Positions 1 to 28,510 of a stretch of 64,000 bases of DNA are shown here, in pieces. The notes beneath the pieces were generated by a model, which saw only the letters and a list, made by a program, of their open reading frames with translations, searched no databases and was not told where the DNA came from. A program made the translations under genes and the position numbers. Each line of letters starts with the position of its first letter. Position 1 is the first letter of the stretch. Origin of the DNA: Mobula hypostoma (taxonomy: Eukaryota); assembly GCF_963921235.1 (NCBI RefSeq), contig NC_086097.1, positions 126,978,001 through 127,042,000 of the forward strand. The letters are read 5' to 3'.

Positions 1-604
1 ATCATCTTCCCAAGCACCTTCTCCCTAGTTATAGCAACAACACTCACTTCTGACCCCTGACACTCTCAAATTTCTAGCATACTGCTAGTGTCTTCCACAT
101 TGAAGACTGACGCAAAATGCTTATTAAGTTCATCTTCCATTTCATAGTCCCTATTACTGCCTCTCTGGTGTAATGTTCCAATGGTCCAATATCCACTTTG
201 GCCTCTCTTCTGTTCTTTATATAAGCTGAAAAAACTTCTGGTGCCCTCTTTTATATTATTGGCTAGCTTGTCTTCATATCTTGTCTTTTCTCTCTTATGG
301 CTTTTTAGTTGCCCTCTGTTTCTCCAAGCTTCCCAATCCTCTAACTTCCTGCTAACTTTTGCTATATTATATGACCTCTCTTTTGCTTTTGTGCTGTCTT
401 TGACTTCCCTTGTCAGCCAAGGTTGCCTCATTCTTCCTTTAGAATACTTCTTCATCTTTGGGATGTATCTAATCTGCACCTTCTGAATTGCTCCTAGAAA
501 CTCCAGCAATTGCCTTTCAGCCGTCATCCCTGCTAGTTTCCCCTTCTTTGGCCAGCTCCTTACTCATGCCTTTGTAGTTCCCATTATTCCACGGTAATAC
601 TGAT
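1..604 (-). mobile_element. CR1-like LINE ORF2 fragment (part interrupted by the HERO-like element)
   Basis: Translations QPWLTREVKD..K, LANNIK...FF, LNKHFASVF are typical of the CR1 ORF2 linker. Confidence 0.8.
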
Positions 605-908
605 CTTAGTCCAAGTGTATTTTTAACTCTTTTGTTCTGGACACCAGTGACTACCAGGAATAGTCTGGTGACAACGTGGAGAGACAGCGGACAGCCAGGG
701 AAGACTGGCACCGGGGGGTGTCAGGATTGGCAGTCCAGGCACCAGCTCAGAAGAGCACCCACCTCTTGAAGCTTCTAGTTTATACGGGGAAACATACCCT
801 CGGGGTCCTCCGAGAGGGAGGGAGAATGATGGACCCAATCGGACGGATACAGTTAATTACAGGGAACGACTACGACCAAGAGCTAGGATAAGAGGCTCTG
901 AGTGTCCA

Positions 909-3900
909 GTGTGTTGGTGTGGGAGAGCGTTTTCCAGCATTAAAGGTGTACGAATCCACCAAGCAAAGTTGAGGTGCTATTCCATCCCAGTGGATGAAGA
1001 TGAGATTACTTCACCAAGCATAGGTGATGTGGTCTTTTCAACCACTGATTCACAAGCCACAGCAATTCGCTCTGGAGAGAGGCATCATACTCCAGGTCAG
1101 ATGAGAGATAACCCAGGTCAGGTTTCAGACCACAGTACCCAGGTAGATCCTTCGCATGATGGCGGTGGTGAGGAGGTAGGGAAGAAGAGAAAGGTCAAGT
1201 GGCCAGCAATGGCAGATGAGAAGGCTTGACGTGTATTTGATGAGGATATCAGTATGATGTTGGAGAACACTCTCAGGGGAACACCAAAGAGGAAGTTGGA
1301 AGTGATGGGCAATATGATTTTCGATGTTGGAAAGTACAGGTTTGGTTTGGTTGAGTTGAAGAAAGCAAAGCCTACACAGCAACCAAGCAGGCACCAGAAG
1401 GAGATTAGTAGGTTGAGGAGAGAGCTTAGATTGTTGAGACTGAGGTGGAAGGTAGCAAGTGAGGGTGACAAGCCAGGGCTTGCTGATCTCCGAGAGCATT
1501 TTCGATTAAAGTTAGCATCACTCTGTCGTGCAGAGTCACAACGTCAAAAGAGAAAGAAGAGAGAGAAGGCAAGAAAGTCGTTCTTTGAGAACCCTCATGA
1601 GTTCACAAAGAAACTGTTTGAACAAAGTAAGAGTGGGCAGCTTAACATCTCTCAACAAGAACTTGAGGATCACCTGGCAAGCACTTACTCTAACGAACAG
1701 CGGGAGGCTCCTTTGCTTGACATTTCAGGGCTTGTGAAGCCTACCAAGCCAGGAGTGAAGTTCAATCTGTCAGAACCCAAACTGGCAGAAGTCGAACGGT
1801 TCATCAGAAAGGCAAGGTCAGGCTCAGTGCCAGGACCTAATGGAGTGCCGTATAACGTGTTCAAGAAGTGTGAACAGCTGAGAAAATACTTGTGGAGATT
1901 GTTAAAGGTGGTGTGGAGACAAGGTGTTGTTCCTTTGTCATGGAGTGAGGCTGAAGGAGAAAACATCCCGAAGGAAGAGAATTCTTCTATATTGAATCAG
2001 TTCCAACCAATTTCACTCCTGAATGTAGAGGGGAAGATTATGTTTGGCTTTCTGGCAGAAAGAATATCTTCATTTGTGATAGAGAATGGATTAGTAAATA
2101 CATCTGTGCAGAAGGCAGGAATACCAGGCTTCCCGGGATGCCTTGAACATTCTAGTATGATATGGCATACCGTCCAGGAGTCAAAAAGGTTGAGAATAAA
2201 TCTGGCTGTAGTTTGGCTTGATCTGGCAAATGCATATGGTTCTGTTCCCCATGTCCTGATTGAGTTTGCGATGGAATTCCTATGGATTCCTGCTAAGGTG
2301 AGGAACTTGGTTATGCAGTCCTGCAACGATTTCCGGATGAGGTTTTCCACTCAGCAGTTTACAACTAGGAGGCAGAGCTTGGATGTTGGAATCCCAATGG
2401 GATGTGCGATTTCACCCATCCTTTTTGTGTTAGCCGTGGAGGTCATTGTGAGGGCTGCAGAATCAGTGGGACCAGGTGTCGCACTTGATGGCGGAGGGGA
2501 GTTACCACCAATACGAGCGTTCATGGACGATCTCACCCTTTTGGGTCCCAGCACAGAGGCAGTGGAAAATGTACTAGCTAGACTCAAGGAGCTCATGGAT
2601 TGGGGAAGAATGAAGTTCAAGACCAAGAAGTCAAGGAGCCTTGTTCTCAGGAGAGGAAAGCTGGTTGACTTTCATTTCACCCTTTGTGGAGAGGAGATTC
2701 CATCCATTCAGGACCAACCAGTTAAGAGCCTTGTGCGATGGTACACAGAGGAGCTGAGAGACACCAAGAGGGTTCAAGAGACAGGAGAACAGATCAATAG
2801 AGGTCTGATGTCTGTTGACAAGTGTGGCTTGCCTGGCAAGTTGAAGTTGTGGTGCTTGCAGTATGGACTGATGCCATGGATAATGTGGCCACTAACTGTC
2901 TATGAGGTGGCAATGTCCCATGTTGAGGCAATGGAATGGAAGATCAACAAGTATGTGAAGAAGTGGCTTGGAGTACCGAGCAGCCTCACCAATGTTGCAA
3001 TCCACAGTAGCCAGACAAAGCTTACCATCCCAGTGCAATCCCTCATTGAAGAGGTCAAGGTTGCCAAGGTAAGATCATTCTTGATGCTTTGAGACTCAAA
3101 AGACCCTGTCATCAAGAATACCCAGCCAGATGTGAGATCAGACAGGAAGTGGTCAGCCCGTGTAGCAGTTGATGAGGCAGAGTCTAGACTGAAGCACAAA
3201 GAGACGGTTGGGACTATCCAGTTAGGCCACCAGGGACTTGGGTGGACAACCCACAAGTGGTGGTCATCTTCTACAGGTAAGGAGTGCCGTGAGCTTGTAA
3301 CACAAGAAATACGAGAGGTAGAAGAGGAGAAGAGGTTAGCTAAAACAGCTGGCCTGGCCAAACAAGGGGCTTGGACTTGGTGGGAAAGTGTTGAACAACG
3401 ACATCTATCTTGGAATGTTCTGTGGCAGATGGAACCGCTCCGTATTTCTGTTCTATGCAGAGCAGCGTACGATCTGCTCCAAACACCTGCCAACCTCAGC
3501 ACCTGGTATGAAGGTAAGACAGGCAGGTGTGCTGCTTGTGGCGAGAAGGGAACACTTCAACATATTTTGAGTGCATGCAGAGTCAATCTTTCCAGCGGCA
3601 TATACATATGGAGACATAACAACTTTCTCAAAGTTGTAACAGAAGCGGTTGAGCAGAGAGTACTGCAGCACAACTTATCTCAAACCCCATGCTGCACAGA
3701 ACATCGCATATTATTTGTGAAAGAAGGCTCCAAGTCAAGGGTGTACAGCGCAGGCTCACGATCAAGCATACTTTCTTCAGCCAATGATTGGTGTGTCAAG
3801 GCCGACCTGGATGGGAAAGGCAGTTTCCCGGAGCAAATAGCTTTCACCACATTGCGTCCAGATATATTTGTATGGTCTAACACCAGTAGAGAAGTGGTTA

Positions 3901-4187
3901 TTGGTGAACTCACAGTCCCCTGGGAAGACAACATCGATGAAGCCCATGAGCGCAAGTTAACCAAGTATGGAGAATTAAGATCAGAGTGCAGAGACAGAGG
4001 GTGGAAGGTCTCATGCTATCCATTTGAAGTAGGCTGCCGTGGGTTTATTGCGTTCACTCTCCAGAAGTGGCTGCGTGACCTTGGCTTCACTAGAAGAGAG
4101 ATCAAGTCAACCAGCAGGGCTGTAGCTGAGGCAGCAGAGAAAGGATCAGCATGGATGTGGACCAAGTATGTCCAGAGGGGCAGATAG
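909..4187 (+). pseudogene. HERO-like ZnF-RT-RLE polyprotein, one frame broken by two TGA stops (1227-1229, 3090-3092)
   Basis: ORFs 909-1229, 1254-3092 and 3132-4187 share a frame, which is open upstream to 672. Confidence 0.88.
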
Positions 4188-4338
4188 TCAGACAGTGTAT
4201 ACATATCTTGCAAACCCTTCAATAGTTGCATAGACACCTGAAGAGCAGACTATCTGTTGGATGGAAGTGACTGATAGTGGCAGATGCCAAGTTTTTAAGC
4301 TCACCAGGGGGAGGTGGTGCTTTAGCACTGCTGGCCCA

Positions 4339-4414
4339 CCACCTCGAGGGAGTCTTGATCATAAGCGGGCTGAAACTCCTGAAGACAGGTGGCGGATCAA
4401 CTGATGATCCCACT
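4339..4414 (+). ncRNA. Putative non-circularly permuted hammerhead ribozyme in HERO 3' UTR
   Basis: GGAGUC (4349-54) pairs with GAAACUCC (4372-79); UUGAUC (4355-60) pairs with GAUCAA (4395-4400), followed by CUGAUGA (4401-07); extra helix CCACCU/AGGUGG. Confidence 0.7.
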
Positions 4415-4465
4415 GGTGATAGCACAGGACAGTTAACATGTTAGTCCAAGTGTATTTTTAACTCT

Positions 4466-5520
4466 AAGTTTGACTTTATCTTCTCTCTCTCAAGTTGCAG
4501 GGTGAATTCCAATACACATTGTAAGGTTTCCTTTACCTTAAGTTCCCTAATCAAATCTGGTTCATTACACAACATGCAATCCAGAATTGCCATCTCATAG
4601 GTATTCTTCAAATTCCCTCTCTTGGCATCCAGCACCAACCTGATTTTCCCAGTCTACCTGCATATTGAAATCCTCATGATTATCCTAGCATTGTTGTGTT
4701 TATATGCCTTTTCTATCTCCCCTTGTAATTTGTAGCCCATTTCCTGGCTACTGTTCAAGGGGCCTGTATATACTGTAACTCCCATCTGTGTCTTTTTACC
4801 CTCGCAGTTTCTACCCACAAAGAGACTACAGTACCTCTTCCAATCCCATGTCACCTCTTTCCAAGAGTTTGATTTCAATTTTTTTGCTAACAGAGCCACT
4901 CTATTTCCTCTGCCTACCTGTCTGTCCTTTCAATACAATGTGTATCACTGGATGTTAAACTCCCTACTATGATCTTTCAACCACTATTCAGTATTGCCCA
5001 AAACATTGTACCTGCCAATCTCTAACAGAGCTCTCAGATACCTTATTCCATATACTGTTTGCATTCAAATATAACACCTTCACTCCTGTATTCATCAACT
5101 TTTCCCCCCATATTGCACTTTATCTCATCCCATTTACTGCAGTGTTGCCCTATCATCTGCCTTCCTCACAGTCTGATTACACACTGCATATGTATGTATA
5201 CCATCTGCCCCATCCTCAGCCCTATCATTCTGGTTCCCATTTCCCTGCAAAATTAGTTTAAACCCTTGCCAAAAGCTTTTACAAACCAGCCTGCAAAGAA
5301 AATTTCCACCTTGTGTTCAGGTGTGACCTATTCTTTTTGTACTTCCAGTTCCTTAGGGTTGTTTTAGTCACTGGCTACCTATTCCCTTTCTCTCTCCTCA
5401 CAATCACGTGGTTACCTGTCTTCTGCAACTTAGGGTTGACTACACCCTGTTGTTCCTATCTATTCTCATTCTTCTACATGAGACAAAGGTCATTGAGCTG
5501 CACCTCCAATTCCTTAAAAT
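4466..5520 (-). mobile_element. CR1-like LINE, APE endonuclease region (continuation of 1-604)
   Basis: AILDCMLCNEPDLIRELKVKE..EFTLQLEREKIKS; joins in frame with SVLPW at 604. Confidence 0.75.
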
Positions 5521-5544
5521 GGTCTCTAAGGAGCTAATTTAATT

Positions 5545-7745
5545 GTGGGAGTGGAATTATGACACTATTAGGCAGGAACTTGGGAGCTTAATTCAGGAAC
5601 GTTGTACTCAGGGAAATTCACAATGGAAATGTGAACATTGTTTAGGAAGCATTTGCATGGGGTTCTTTATAAGTTTATCCTATTGAGACAGGGGAAGGTT
5701 GATAGGGTACAAGAAGAAGAAGGAAGCTTAAATAAGGTTCAGAAAGCAAGGATCAGGCAGGGCTCTAGATAATTACAAAGTAGCCAGGGAGGAGCTGAAG
5801 AATGGATTAGGAGAGAAGCCCTTGACGAGTAGAATTAAGGAAAACCCCAAGGTGTTCTACACGTGTGAAGAAGAGGAGGATGACTAGACTGACGATAGGA
5901 TTGATCGGGGATAGAAGAGGAAATGTTCCTGAAGTCGATGGAGATATGGGAGGTCCTTAATGAATACCTTGCTCCAGTATTCACCAGTGAGAGGGATATT
6001 GATGATTGTGAGGGTAGCGCAAAATCAACTGATAGATTGGAACACCTTGACATTAAGAAAGAAGACCAGCATGAACTTTTGAAAAACATTAGGCTAGATG
6101 ACTCCCCAGTGCTGATAGGATATACCCCAGGTTACTACGGCAAGCAGGGGAAGAGATTACTATGCCTTTGGCAATTATCTTTGCACCCCTACTGTCTTCA
6201 GAGATTTGTTCTGGAACCCCTGCACTTTGTGATTTTTATAAATGACTTGGATGAGGAATTGGAAGAGTTGGTTAGTAAGTTTGCAGGTGATATGAAGGTT
6301 GTGGAAATTGTGAGTAGGATAGAAAGTTGTCATAGGATACAGTGGGATGGATATTGACGGGCTGCAGAGCGGGTCTGAGAGGTGGCAGATGGAGTTCAAT
6401 CTGAAGAAATATGAAGTGATTCATTTTGAAAGATCAAATTTGAAGGCAGAATACACGGTTAATGACATGATTCTTGGAATCCACGTCTACAGATCTCTCA
6501 AAGTCGCCACACAGGTTGATAGGGTGATTAACAAGGTAAGCGGTATGTTTGCCTTCATTAGTCAGGGGATTGAGTTCAAGGCCGCGAAGTAATGTTGCAG
6601 CTCTGTAAAACCCTGGTTAGACCACTCTTGAATTATTGTGTTCAATAATCCAACGTAGATTGGGAGACGCTTCACCAAGCATCTACGTTCCGTCGGCCAG
6701 AACAAGCGGGATCTGCCAGTGGCCAGCCATTTTAATCTCATTCCCATTCTGATATGTTCATCCATGGCCTCCACTGTCAGGATAAGGCCACACTTCGGTT
6801 GAAGGAACAACACCTTATATTCTGTTTGGGTAGCCTCCAACCTGATGGCATGAACATCAATTTCTCAAACTTCCAGTAATGCCTCCACCCCACACTTCTC
6901 CATTTCCCTTCCCCTTGTCCCTGTCTCTTGTTATCTCCTTGCCTGCCCATCGCCTCCCTCTGGTGCTTCTCCCGCGCCCCCCCTTCTTCTTTCTTCCATG
7001 GCCTTCTGTCTCTTTCACCGATCAATTTCCCAGCTCCTTGCTTTATCCCTCCCCCTCCAAGTTTCATCTATCGCCTGGTGTTTCTCTCTCCCATCCCCAC
7101 ACCTTTCAAATCTACTCCTCAGCTTTTTTTCTCCAGTCCTGCTGAAGGATTTCAGCCCGAAACATTGACTGTACTCTTTTCCATAGATGCTGCCTGGCCT
7201 GCTGAATTCCTCCAGCATTTTATGTGTGTTATTGTGCTCAGTTGTGGTTGCCTCATTATAGGAACGATGTAGAGGCTTTAGAGAGGGTGCAGATGAGATT
7301 TCCCAGGATGATGCTCAGATTAGAGAGCATGTCTTGTGAGGATCGGTTGATTGAGCTGAGGCTTTTCTCTTTGCAGTGAAAGAGGGTGAAAGGGCACTTA
7401 ATAGAGGTATACAAGGTGAAAAGATTGACTTTCCCAGGATGGAAATGGCAAATATGAGGAGGCATAATTTTTAGGTGGTTGGTGGAAAGTATAGAGGGGA
7501 TGTCAAAGTAAGTTCTTTACACAGGGTGATGAGTGTATGAAACACATTGTCAGGGATGGTGATAAAGGCAGATACATTAGAGACATTTAAGAAACTTCTA
7601 GAGAGATCCATGGATGATAGAAAATTGGAGGACTGTGTAGAAATGAATGAATGATTAGATTGATTTAAGAGTAGATTAAAAGGTTGGCACAATATTGTGG
7701 GCTGAATTGTCTGTACTGTGCTGCAATGTTCTATGCTCTAAAACC
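5545..7745 (+). mobile_element. Degenerate CR1-like LINE, interrupted by a Penelope fragment
   Basis: LNEYLAPVFT, FVIFINDLDE..VSKFAGD, WQMEFN..K.EVIHF; CR1-type 3' UTR ending tgttctatgctcta. Confidence 0.8.
6645..7228 (+). mobile_element. Penelope-like element 3' fragment (GIY-YIG C-terminus plus pseudo-LTR with degenerate hammerhead)
   Basis: Homologous to 19745-20068; flanked by near-identical 12-bp repeat ttattgtgYtca (6633-44, 7229-40); cagtc-ctgctga...gaaacatt-gactg at about 7134-7171. Confidence 0.75.
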
Positions 7746-25214: not shown

Positions 25215-28130
25215 GAGACTGGGTGACCAACCACGAAAAGAGTGGTGACGACTGGAGAGTCAGTGACAGCCCGGAGAGACAGCAACCAGGGCAGAACGGG
25301 CTGGCAACCCAATCTGTGTCCTCTGAAAGGAGGACCCCCACATAAGCCACAAAGAATCTAGGAAAAGATACCCCCAGGGGTGCCCGAGAGGGGGGGAGGA
25401 TGAGCACCCCAGTCGGAAGGACACAATGACATCAGACCCAGGCAATGAACAAACGACGATGAGGAAGCAGTGTGCACGTGGCAGAATCTGCAAGAACGAT
25501 CGTGGCTTGAAGATCCACCAAGCGAGGATGAAGTGTTTGGCGGGAGCAGGAGCAGCACAACACGCAACTGTCCAACGTGGTGAGACGAAGGAAGGGCCAG
25601 GCCCGGAGTCACCCCATAGTGCCCGGAACCTCCAAGTGTTGCAAACTAATCCCTCGAACATGAGTAACAGGAGGCGGATCAAATGGTCTGCAGCTAACAT
25701 GACTTCACTGTGGAAGCAGTTTGATGAAGATGTTAACCAAATTCTGGAGGCAACGGCGAAGGGAGGGGCTGATAGGAAGATGCAAGCCATGACAACAATT
25801 ATTGTCAGTATCGCAGCTGAACGGTTCGGAGAAGAGGAGAAGGAAGGCTCCAAAACATCTTACTCGAAGAACCAAAGAGCATCGAGGATCCACAACATCA
25901 GGCAGGAGATGAAAGCGCTGAAGTCCCAATACAAGGAGGCAGGAGAAGAGGAGTGCATTGGCTTGGCCCAGCTGATGTGCATACTACGAAAGAAGATCAG
26001 GGTCCTCTGCCGGGCAGAGTGGCATTGGAGGCGGCAGCATGAAAGGGCTCGAAAACATGCTGCCTTTATCACCAATCCCTTCAAGTTCACCAAGGAGTTG
26101 CTGGGGGAGAAGCGCAGAGGGAAACTGGCCTGTTCACAGGTAGACTTAGACCAACATCTGAAGAAGATATATAATGATCCTGAAAGAGAGCAGGAGTTGG
26201 GAGAGTGCGACATCCTAATAGACCCACCTGAACCGGATGTGCAGTTCGACATGTCAGAGCTGCAGCTAAAGGAAGTCAGAGAGGTCGTCCGCAAAGCAAA
26301 GACAAGCTCGGCTCCAGGACTAAGCAACACCTCGTACAAAGTGTACAAGAATTGCCCCAAACTCCTGCTGCGTCTGTGGAAGGTCCTGAGAATCTTCTGG
26401 AGAAGGGGGAAAACCCCAGAGCAGTGGAGAGTGGCTGAAGGGGTGTGGATCCTGAAGGAGGAAAATGACACCCAGATAGATCAGTTTCACATCATCTCCC
26501 TGCTGTGTGTCGAGGCGAAGATCTTCTTCAGTGCAGTTTCTAAACGGCTCTTTAAGGGCCACAACATCCATTCAGGCAACCTGCACCGAGTTGGATGGCT
26601 GGCTGAGATCTGTGGACAAGTCTGGCCTACCTGGGAAGTTTAAAGCCTGGATGTATCAGCATGGCATTCTTCCCAGAATCCTATGGCCCCTCCTCATCTA
26701 TGCAGTCCCGATCTCGACAGTCGAAACCTTAGAGAGGAGGGTTAGCAACCACCTCAGGAGATGGCTGGGGCTGCCAAAGAGCCTGAGCAGCATCGCACTC
26801 TATGGACACCACAACAAACTGCAACTGCCCTTCAAATCCTTGGAGGAGGAATTCAAGGTAACAAGAGCCAGAGAAGTGCTACAGTACAGGGACTCAAGTG
26901 ACCCGAAGGTGGCTAGAGCAGGGATCCAAGTAAGTATTGGCAGGAAGTGGAGGGCAGAGGAAGCTGTTCAGGAGGCAGAGGCAAGGCTGCATCACAGGAG
27001 GCTGGTGGGAGTGGTCACACGAGGCCGAGCTGGGCTAGGATCCTTTCCAACTCCCCAAATGGACACCAGAGGGAAGGAAAGGCGTCATCTAGTTCAGGAG
27101 GAGGTGAGAGCAGTAGTGGAGGAGATGAGAGCCTGCAAGGCGGTGGGAATGAAGCAACAGGGAGCTTGGACAAGATGGGAGAATGCGGTTGAGAGGAAGG
27201 TGACCTGGGCTGATCTTTGGAAAGCCGAACCACACCGCATCCAATTTCTCATCCAGGCAGTGTACGATATGCTTCCAAGTCCATCAAACCTGCACACATG
27301 GGGCAAGGCAGAGTCATCTGCGTGCCCACTGTGCTCTAAGCGAGGAACCCTGGAGCACATCCTCAGCGGCTGTGCAAGGGCACTTGGTGAGGGACGGTAC
27401 AGGTGGAGGCATGATCAGGTCCTGAAGACCATCGCTGAAGCTGTCAGCGCAGGAGTTGAGTGGGCGAAGCGGTCCCGACCCTCCAAGCAGACCATTGCCT
27501 TTGTCAGAGCTGGGGAGCAGCCAATACCTGCCAACAGAACATCTGCAGGCATTCTGACCCCTGCAAGGGACTGGCAGCTGTTGGTGGACCCCGAAGGGCA
27601 GCTGAAGTTCCCCAACCATATCGCAGCCACCGCCCTGCAACCAGACGTTGTCCTAGTGTCTGAGTCGACTAAGCAAGTGGTGCTGCTGGAGCTGACAGTC
27701 CCATGGGAAGATAGCTTGGAAGAGGCCTTTGAAAGGAAGCTCTCCAAGTACGCAGGACTGGTCAGCAACTGTCAGCAGGCTGGATGGAGAGCGAGGTGTC
27801 TCCCAGTGGAGGTTGGTTGTAGGGGATTTGTAGCCCGTTCTTCAGTTAGAGCCTTCAGCATTTTGGGCATCGAGGGAGAGAGGAAGAGGAGAGCCATCCG
27901 CAGTACCACCAATGCGGCAGAGAGGGCCTCAAGATGGCTGTGGCTCAAAAGAGGGGAGCCATGGAGTCATAAGTAGCTAGCCATCTGGACACAAGCTGGG
28001 GTCTGATCAGCCCCGGCTGGGTCACCTGGGGGAGGCTGTATGACGTTGAAAGACCCGAAACACCCGATGATTCCAGGAACATCACTGAAGATGTGTCCAG
28101 AAGCATCAATAGATGTATGTACACAACAGT
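25215..28130 (+). mobile_element. Second, divergent HERO-like retrotransposon with internal deletion of the RT core
   Basis: Zinc finger CARGRICKNDRGLKIHQARMKC, GLPGKFK, CPLCSKRGTLEHILSGC, RHD, PDVV..ELTVPWE..K.SKY; no xxDD region, frameshifted junction near 26550. Confidence 0.9.
28025..28098 (+). ncRNA. Putative permuted hammerhead ribozyme in second HERO 3' UTR
   Basis: GGcUGUA (28034-40) pairs with GAAACACCC (28057-65); UGAcGUU (28041-47) pairs with AACAUCA (28078-84), followed by CUGAAGA (28085-91); extra helix CCUGG/CCAGG. Confidence 0.65.
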
Positions 28131-28510
28131 GTAATAGGGTAACGAATCACACAGCATCCACACAAACAGGGGTTTGGGGTGGGCTCGTGCCTCAACCTCA
28201 CAGGTTTGGCGGGGCCAAAGTTTGTCTTCCCTAGACTTACACAACTGACAGAACCAGAGTGTTTCATGAGCATATAATTATTAGTTTAATTAGTACGGCA
28301 CAATATTTTGGGCCAAAATGTCTCTCCTGCTTTTCTATACTCAATAGCCACTGTATTAGGAACCTATTGTCCCTAATTCAAGATTGCTTAATGTCAGTTC
28401 CAGTACAGAGGTGTAGAGGAGAATGAAGTAATTGTGACTCCGGATCTGATGCAGCACAAAAAAACACAAAACTAAATTATAATTTAAAAACACAATAAAT
28501 AAAAATACAT

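Follow-up and report, generated by a model that had tools for sequence, protein, structure and literature searches.

A restriction-like-endonuclease retrotransposon of Mobula hypostoma inserts together with part of a second unit upstream of its 5' start, possibly by copying RNA whose ends are held together

A stretch of 64,000 nucleotides of the Mobula hypostoma genome (assembly GCF_963921235.1, contig NC_086097.1, positions 126,978,001 to 127,042,000 of the forward strand; hereafter the window, whose own numbering is used throughout) contains, at 605-4465, a copy of a long interspersed nuclear element (LINE) related to R2 retrotransposons, which we refer to as family 1. This copy is made of one unit (631-4465) preceded by 26-28 nt that repeat the end of a unit, and it is the product of a single insertion event. 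The same head-to-tail boundary was found at 80 of 85 unit starts of this family in the genome, and again in a second, divergent family. Taking the one-insertion layout, the fixed 3' end, the run-on junctions and the lack of a target-site duplication (TSD) jointly with the conclusion that the reverse transcriptase (RT) copies a template longer than one unit, we consider the whole to be quite probable. As a tentative proposal that goes beyond it, a clade of R2-related LINEs in a cartilaginous fish may replicate on RNA that has its two ends paired, or perhaps ligated into a circle, with the RT routinely running from the 5' end onto the 3' end.

A first-pass annotation of the window had pointed out an identical 25-mer, TTAGTCCAAGTGTATTTTTAACTCT, at 606-630 and 4441-4465, and had assigned both copies to the element instead of to a TSD. 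The repeat is exact: the 25-mer occurs exactly twice in the window, none of 100 shuffled sequences gave a match, and self-comparison extends it to 27/28 identity between 603-630 and 4438-4465. The three letters that precede TTAGTCC are ATC in other family 1 copies and at window 603-605, and ATG in the 3' copy of the window. The element interrupts an older, LINE-like host repeat with its frame on the minus strand, the left part of which occupies 1-604 and the right part 4466-5300, where it may extend further. Twenty-nine paralogues of this repeat, 81-85% identical to window 330-604 and continuing into 4466, were fetched. Alignment of both flanks extends to the site in 18 of these, with 16 exactly contiguous across 604|4466 and two off by one base, while in the remaining 11 no right-flank alignment reaches the site. 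The 20 paralogue junctions that were read run mostly ...taatactgat|acatctgac..., with single-base variants and no resemblance to the 25-mer, and three further paralogue contigs from public runs bridge the site with exactly the expected letters (39, 27 and 30). Since the paralogues are contiguous across 604|4466, the insert comprises 605-4465, both 25-mers lie inside it, and a TSD is lacking, as the annotation had argued from the host frame; nor was any target DNA deleted. The sole mark at the 5' joint of the insert is a 2-nt AT microhomology. At the right flank, positions 4466-4470 read aagtt and the paralogues acatc, a difference at three positions next to 30 nt that agree well, which is either a small integration scar or chance.

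The 25-mer is present twice because the single insertion exceeds one unit. The insert begins with an overshoot, that is, the last 26 nt of a second unit (605-630, or 28 nt with the ambiguous AT at 603-604), which holds the 5' 25-mer and matches 4438-4465 at 27 of 28 positions; there follows one full unit of 3835 nt on the plus strand (631-4465), which closes with the 3' 25-mer (4441-4465) at the fixed family 1 3' end, position 4465. Overshoot and unit occupy one clean gap of the host repeat. The annotation had let the RT run 25 nt past one unit; the copy is indeed longer than one unit, here by 26-28 nt, and it is the fixed length that has to be given up, the overshoot ranging in other copies from 21 to more than 1521 nt. 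An ordinary TSD, or an older truncated copy behind which a second element landed by chance, would account for an insert flanked by direct repeats and for nothing more. Such an origin is exceedingly improbable, given that the 25-mer terminates copies at unrelated loci and that none of 27 free 3' ends precedes another copy, and the 25-mer as a TSD is ruled out by the paralogue junctions, which lack it and become collinear with the window when both copies are removed.

Across the 3.48-Gb genome of M. hypostoma, family 1 ends in one way and begins in many. Thirty-four of 39 genomic 3' matches stop at window 4462-4467, and the 32 free 3' ends that were read finish in ...AACTCT (a few in AACTCA or AACTCC) and pass into unrelated DNA with no poly(A), whereas the 18 visible truncated 5' ends are scattered over window 2969-4086. 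In a first look, 1499 candidates were obtained for the last 166 nt versus 322 for 631-1100. This combination of a fixed 3' end and variable 5' truncation is the footprint of target-primed reverse transcription. Insertion is mostly non-site-specific, the flanks of about 27 5' ends and 32 3' ends being mutually unrelated, and no TSD of 4 nt or more was present in any of the seven insertions with both flanks known. Of two patterns that the annotation had named as worth looking for in other copies, the occurrence of the 25-mer at unrelated loci was borne out, since it terminates family 1 copies beside unrelated flanks, while endpoints varying as circular permutations were not what the genome holds, the 3' ends being fixed.

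The copies that reach the unit start behave differently from the truncated ones. Among 29 loci fetched by their 5' region, 24 carry a second block from the 3' part of the element, which ends at 4465 and overlaps the 5' block by the 25-mer; four more hold 21-34 nt of an upstream piece and one (L030) starts at 634, so that 28/29 have such a piece. The 28 overshoots measure 21, 22, 33, 34, 54, 63, 64, 69, 74, 93, 94, 141, 162, 174, 177, 250, 270, 285, 441, 478, 596, 617, 627, 646, 800, 890, 1011 and, in the longest (L011), at least 1521 nt; at 12 of the 29 loci the overshoot is shorter than 100 nt. All 26 distinct junctions that were read are seamless, running ...AACTCT|TTTGTTCTGG. As this sample had been ranked by a query holding the 25-mer, we made an independent count with the first 25 nt of the unit as the pattern, which at ≤ 2 mismatches has 85 matches genome-wide. 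The junction is carried by 59 of these 85 unit starts at ≤ 2 mismatches and by 68 at ≤ 3, to which L028 with a diverged junction is added; the last 16, of which 45-nt stretches were read, comprise 10 diverged junctions, one terminal deletion (L094) and five starts without an upstream unit (L095, L097, L100, L101 and L105). In total, 80/85 family 1 unit starts are directly preceded by the 3' end of another unit, and the junction is perfect in 77 of these 80, the imperfect ones being L094, L095 and L104. L095 (G000:C63:50271398-50271442) shows a stutter, in which a few 3'-end bases are followed by the first 7 nt of the unit, an extra A and the unit again, and which looks like a slipped crossing at an RNA 5' end.

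These composites are partial tandems. No two of the 85 unit starts lie one unit apart, the sole pair within 12 kb being separated by 904 bp, so arrays of whole units, another possibility raised in the annotation, do not occur among them. Moreover, no element DNA was found upstream of the truncated copies with a visible 5' end (0/18) or downstream of free 3' ends (0/27 loci), and crossing into another unit is therefore tied to the unit's 5' start. The same two counts, together with the single gap in the host repeat, exclude two successive insertions or a self-targeted double insertion as the source of the layout. No inverted companion copies were seen in 59 loci, a difference from Penelope elements. 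Seven of the 29 5' loci (L005, L014, L017, L023, L024, L025 and L028) have a large internal deletion with 0-4 nt of microhomology; the left breakpoints cluster at window 1187-1407 (six of seven in 1316-1407) and the right ones scatter over 3722-4334, and the clustering may mark a preferred landing zone for template switches or, alternatively, a short RNA with its end near 1350. Two truncated copies on the same contig (L049 and L050, G000:C91), separated by about 1.1 Mb, share their truncation point and have identical 3' flanks, and thus represent a segmental duplication and not two insertions. Public runs that contain near-identical family 1 31-mers carry the labels of at least 12 coded organisms; family 1 is thus common to related species, or widespread.

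The window holds a second element of the same kind, which we call family 2, at 25216-28125 on the plus strand (tblastn identity 37-41%). This divergent copy is without the first 35 nt and about 210 RT residues, and the missing portion includes the catalytic region. Family 2 has sharp 3' ends at 28123-28136, which are 97-99% identical, and 3180 first-look candidates were obtained with a query that also held 266 nt of flank; the family is young and abundant. Reading 55 nt around 12 other 5' ends, we found nine unit starts (GCTTACACC...) directly after the family's own 3' end (...TATGTACACA), two copies that start at the boundary, and one that is truncated. An exact gapped pattern for the family 2 junction gave no match in the genome, a result that is uninformative, as the 17-mer taken from the window copy has three exact genome matches. 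The same junction in a family that is 37-41% identical in protein makes the layout a property of the element group and not of one lineage. Separately, another repeat at 5900-6600 (plus strand) has open frames with LINE reverse-transcriptase-like motifs.

The coding capacity of family 1 places it among the LINEs. Two in-frame stops, at 1227-1229 and 3090-3092, interrupt the otherwise open frame 672-4187, so that the window copy is dead. In the 1230-3092 frame, residues 246-471 (window 1965-2642) match Pfam RVT_1 with E = 1.3e-14 and constitute the RT domain; its best sequence matches in the PDB are vertebrate R2 (6.2e-18) and L1 ORF2p. The remainder, 3093-4187, comprises a linker, a CCHC motif and a restriction-like endonuclease, as judged from a homologue alignment and Foldseek. 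The CCHC residues (C146, C149, H157 and C162 of this piece) are invariant across 20 sequences, namely the last 364 residues and 19 homologues. Sequence searches with these 364 residues gave no Pfam and no PDB match. With a predicted model of them (pLDDT, the predicted local distance difference test, of 72), all seven Foldseek matches at E ≤ 1e-3 were R2 proteins, and PD-(D/E)XK nucleases came next. Pfam matches to a GIY-YIG or an integrase domain were absent from the element protein. The LINE-type RT, the CCHC motif and the R2-like endonuclease fold together identify the element as a retrotransposon without long terminal repeats (LTRs) that has a restriction-like endonuclease, not as a Penelope-like element, and it belongs to the R2 superfamily. 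Its closest homologues come from lancelets, sea urchin, brittle star, carp and stingray; the range of the HERO clade, as given in excerpts of PMC4640811 and PMC9004415, covers lancelets, sea urchins, brittle star and fishes.

How, then, does an insertion come to exceed one unit? In the two families, 75-94% of the copies that reach the unit start run on seamlessly into the 3' end of a unit and break off at a distance that varies and is often small. We infer that the template presents a unit's 3' end immediately upstream of a unit's 5' start. The annotation's more general idea of a template longer than one unit is thereby upheld, by the boundary at 80/85 unit starts and by its return in the second family. 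The explanation that we prefer, while holding it at somewhat less than an even chance, is a unit-length RNA whose ends are held by pairing, across which the RT would pass from the 5' end to the 3' end. Reverse transcription is target-primed and starts at the fixed 3' end without poly(A), and most copies stop early and are thus 5'-truncated. The 3' untranslated region (UTR) would pair with the first 20-45 nt of the unit and bring both RNA ends side by side, an R2-type RT, on reaching the 5' end, would pass over to a 3' end, either that of its own template or that of a sister RNA, and each insertion would in this way acquire an upstream piece resembling the pseudo-LTR of Penelope elements. In vitro, R2 proteins can move on to additional templates by jumping, and in cells they yield a class of 'tandem insertion' 5' junctions (PMC11371274, excerpt). 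That the enzyme of family 1 is likewise prone to switching is suggested by the internal deletions with their short microhomologies at 7/29 5' loci and from the stutter junction of L095. Because the layout would be regenerated at each insertion, end pairing would also explain its persistence across subfamilies and in two old families.

The annotation had noted complementarity between the two ends of the element, and folding of the head-to-tail junction recovered it. In the predicted structure, 4411-4436 forms the 5' arm of a boundary-spanning helix of about 22-25 pairs, its partners being 4458-4465 and the bases 631-649, either those of the following unit or those of its own RNA. The L007 junction has a minimum free energy of -24.2 kcal/mol (z = -2.95, 1/200 shuffles as good) and the L003 junction a z of -2.19 (4/200); in folded L007 the boundary lies within the helix, with U4465 and U631 opposite A4433 and G4432. 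Joining the 3' end to the unit start yields an energy gain of -10.4 and -10.6 kcal/mol in family 1, versus -4.2 +/- 2.8 with shuffled starts (7/300 as good in each case), and of -10.7 kcal/mol in family 2, versus -3.5 +/- 2.5 (1/300), whereas real genomic flanks reach only -1.1 and -4.3 in the same measure. In family 2, the pairing takes the form of a long-range helix between the 3' UTR and unit bases 18-45, which encloses the 3' terminal and the 5' terminal hairpins. On these folding results we regard the end-to-end pairing as moderately supported and likely to be real, with statistical support that is modest.

Two smaller hairpins recur in both families. The first, in the 5' UTR at 653-669 (ACCAG-GAAUAGU-CUGGU), is duplicated in most family 1 copies by 22 nt as ACCGG-GAAUAGU-CCGGU (L007:1551-1588), and its family 2 counterparts, ACCAG-GAAAGA-CUGGG and ACCAC-GAAAAGA-GUGGU, have stems that covary and a loop that is kept; these compensatory changes suggest that an RNA element with a regulatory or protein-binding role lies close to the 5' end. 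Because of the 22-nt duplication, some alignments seemed to place a 5' end at window 653, which is an artifact. The second hairpin lies in the 3' UTR at 4394-4410 (GGAUCA-ACUGA-UGAUCC) and is present in the minimum-energy structure; it holds the heptamer CUGAUGA (4401-4407). At the aligned place family 2 reads ACAUC-ACUGAA-GAUGU, with two compensatory pairs, and the heptamer reads CUGAAGA. The 3' UTR blocks common to both families (4366-4410 and 28055-28100) consist of CCGAAAC.CC and the hairpin with its loop ACUGA(A), and they may be the recognition site of the RT.

Several points weigh against crossing at paired RNA ends. In vitro, template jumps by R2 often add extra bases, and in family 1 just 3 of 80 junctions are imperfect, so a template that already carries the junction fits at least as well as a jump. 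Copies that start at the boundary amount to 5/85 in family 1, scarcely above the smooth stopping rate. The upstream piece and the copy's own 3' end are mutual nearest relatives in one of four composites, a test of little power. The duplex-only energy between the 3' UTR and the unit start is not significant (z = -0.8, 108/500, for family 1 and z = -1.5 for family 2), and the helices of the two families are not alignable column by column, so they give no covariation proof of the pairing. The public runs are contigs of uncertain kind, none on record as RNA; in the contigs of runs X1, X5, X19 and X20, whose kind is guessed, there were no starts, ends or usable junction joints, and the depth in DNA runs rises from 5' to 3' along the element, a rough trend, as contig depth cannot rank gene parts. 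Finally, membership of the HERO clade, which is probable, is judged solely from the taxa of the homologues.

The first of these points leads to terminally redundant linear transcripts. In such a scheme, partial-tandem master copies would be transcribed from inside the upstream piece, through a pseudo-LTR promoter or a HeT-A-style promoter in the 3' end, and new copies would be 5'-truncated products of an RNA that already holds the junction. This would fit the seamless junctions (26/26 read, and 77/80 perfect genome-wide) and the small pile-up at the boundary (5/85), the overshoots of less than 100 nt at 12/29 loci could mark transcription starts, and precedents exist, as transcription of Penelope and Chlamys starts within the pseudo-LTR (PMC8557442, excerpt) and HeT-A has its promoter in the 3' UTR (PMC5537684, excerpt). 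However, the promoter is hypothetical here, overshoots of 600 to more than 1521 nt would require very distant start sites, and the overshoot could only shrink with each generation, which is hard to reconcile with a layout that is still found in several subfamilies and in both families. The copies that begin exactly at the boundary, 5/85 in family 1 and 2/12 in family 2, also speak against such transcripts and favor an end-paired unit RNA. On balance we judge transcription of partial tandems to be possible, though doubtful; should it explain the layout, the significance for transposon biology would be lesser.

A closed RNA would present the boundary just as well. The annotation had proposed a circular or head-to-tail RNA that is cut, and perhaps religated, by a hammerhead ribozyme. 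Spelled out, this model has a multimeric or read-through transcript that the ribozyme would cut at every unit boundary, a unit that would be ligated into a circle with its ends aligned by the 4411-4436 helix, and rolling-circle reverse transcription that would initiate internally at 4465. A circle accounts for the seamless junctions, the variable overshoot and the absence of a pile-up, the position of U4465 and U631 opposite A4433 and G4432 inside the helix has the geometry of a ligatable nick, and a Penelope element is known to initiate internally on RNA that spans the junction (PMC11167929, excerpt). The ribozyme itself was not recovered. With permissive filters (E ≤ 10), Rfam gave no match to a ribozyme of any class, hammerhead, HDV-like (hepatitis delta virus-like), twister, pistol and hatchet included, in window 1-6000, three tandem loci and family 2, and a scan with a hammerhead descriptor (CUGANGA and GAAA cores with closing helices) found no core on either strand of six sequences (12 strands). 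GAAAC (4372-4376) lies 25 nt before CUGAUGA (4401-4407), which is the wrong order for a hammerhead, and the gap is too short for the two hairpins that this order would require. The CUGAUGA heptamer is instead part of the 3' UTR hairpin, which covaries between the families while the heptamer differs in family 2. The stem II that the end-to-end hairpin was said to overlap, perhaps as a switch, was likewise not found by Rfam or by the descriptor scan. For an HDV-like ribozyme at the 5' end there was no Rfam match and, by eye, no P1 partner for 631-637, a weak negative for a class that is hard to detect by sequence. Back-splicing, as another way to a circle, lacks an AG...GT at the unit boundary. 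We therefore hold the ribozyme-cut circle with internal initiation to be quite unlikely, and the same crossing path on a covalently closed circle made without a hammerhead to be unlikely.

It may also be asked whether pairing of the ends has any role at all, as the RT could jump from end to end between separate RNAs without guidance. R2 proteins do extend their products by jumping to further 3' UTR RNAs (PMC11371274, excerpt). The internal deletions of family 1 indicate a switch-prone enzyme, and in two of seven composites the terminal 25-nt variants differ between the upstream piece and the copy's own 3' end. Yet crossing in 75-94% of copies with near-perfect junctions far exceeds the rate of unguided jumps, jumps from a broken 5' end are absent from all 18 truncated copies, and pairing across the boundary is predicted in two families. 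For these reasons unguided jumping appears very unlikely to us, and passage of the RT across paired ends of a unit-length RNA remains the explanation that we prefer.

If end pairing drives the crossing, it would constitute a simple RNA device that makes an RT copy beyond the 5' end of its template. It would bear on the origin of terminal redundancy and of LTRs, and on annotation, where such copies may be mistaken for LTR elements, tandem duplications or inserts flanked by TSDs, as well as on the concatemer by-products of R2-based gene insertion (PMC11371274, excerpt). In the literature searched, neither partial tandems nor end pairing turned up for LINEs with a restriction-like endonuclease, HERO included, Repbase reports lying outside this search.

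Compared with known systems, the element shares its C-terminal fold, its RT and a precise 3' end without poly(A) with R2, and in R2, too, the RT can pass from the end of one template to the 3' end of a second RNA, with tandem 5' junctions seen in cells (PMC11371274, excerpt). R2, however, is specific to a site in the 28S ribosomal DNA, whereas the flanks are unrelated here; tandem products are a side reaction in R2 and make up 75-94% of the 5'-reaching copies in our families; and the HDV-like 5' ribozyme of R2 was not detected. With the HERO clade the element has in common the single frame for RT, CCHC motif and restriction-like endonuclease, mostly non-specific insertion, and a matching host range. 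The telomeric LINEs HeT-A and TART of Drosophila are also arranged head to tail, the 3' end of the upstream element serving the downstream one as an LTR-like unit (PMC5537684, excerpt), but their arrays are built by successive insertions at chromosome ends, whereas here the upstream piece arrives with the same insertion and anywhere in the genome. Retrozymes, to which the annotation had likened the element, resemble it in the notion of an RNA one unit long that has its ends joined and is copied beyond a single unit, as far as excerpted accounts describe them; they are non-autonomous and defined by a hammerhead, and the likeness does not hold, since our element, autonomous in design, has its own frame for RT and endonuclease and no hammerhead was found in it. 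In retroviruses and LTR retrotransposons, terminal redundancy in the form of R regions lets the RT move between the ends. Terminal redundancy is shared with the present element, although its repeat has no fixed length (21 to more than 1521 nt), it has no TSD and its synthesis is target-primed; a primer-binding site, a polypurine tract and an integrase were not noted in it, no search having been aimed at them.

The closest parallel in layout, and one that the annotation had named correctly, is provided by Penelope elements. Pseudo-LTRs count as a hallmark of Penelope-like elements, with an origin ascribed to the GIY-YIG nuclease. According to an excerpt of PMC8557442, they are not seen when non-LTR elements undergo target-primed reverse transcription. 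Family 1 and family 2 nevertheless form partial tandems of the pseudo-LTR kind at 80/85 and 9/12 unit starts. The two systems differ in their enzymes, a telomerase-like RT with GIY-YIG in Penelope as opposed to a LINE-type RT, a CCHC motif and a restriction-like endonuclease of R2 fold here, and in the hammerhead that lies in the pseudo-LTR of canonical Penelope clades and was not found in our element. The layout is thus that of Penelope pseudo-LTRs and the protein set that of R2/HERO; hitherto this layout has been described for Penelope elements, and we did not find a report of it for a LINE. If the reading of paired or circular RNA is true, these elements would have arrived at the Penelope layout by convergence and without a ribozyme, and would stand as a living intermediate between the logic of LINEs and that of LTR elements. 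As in Penelope elements (PMC8557442 and PMC11167929, excerpts), full-length copies stand behind another copy of themselves that is 5'-truncated to a varying extent, heavy 5' truncation prevails and the arrangement is family-wide; since it is the rule in two families with an R2-type nuclease, the pseudo-LTR layout need not depend on the Penelope enzyme set.

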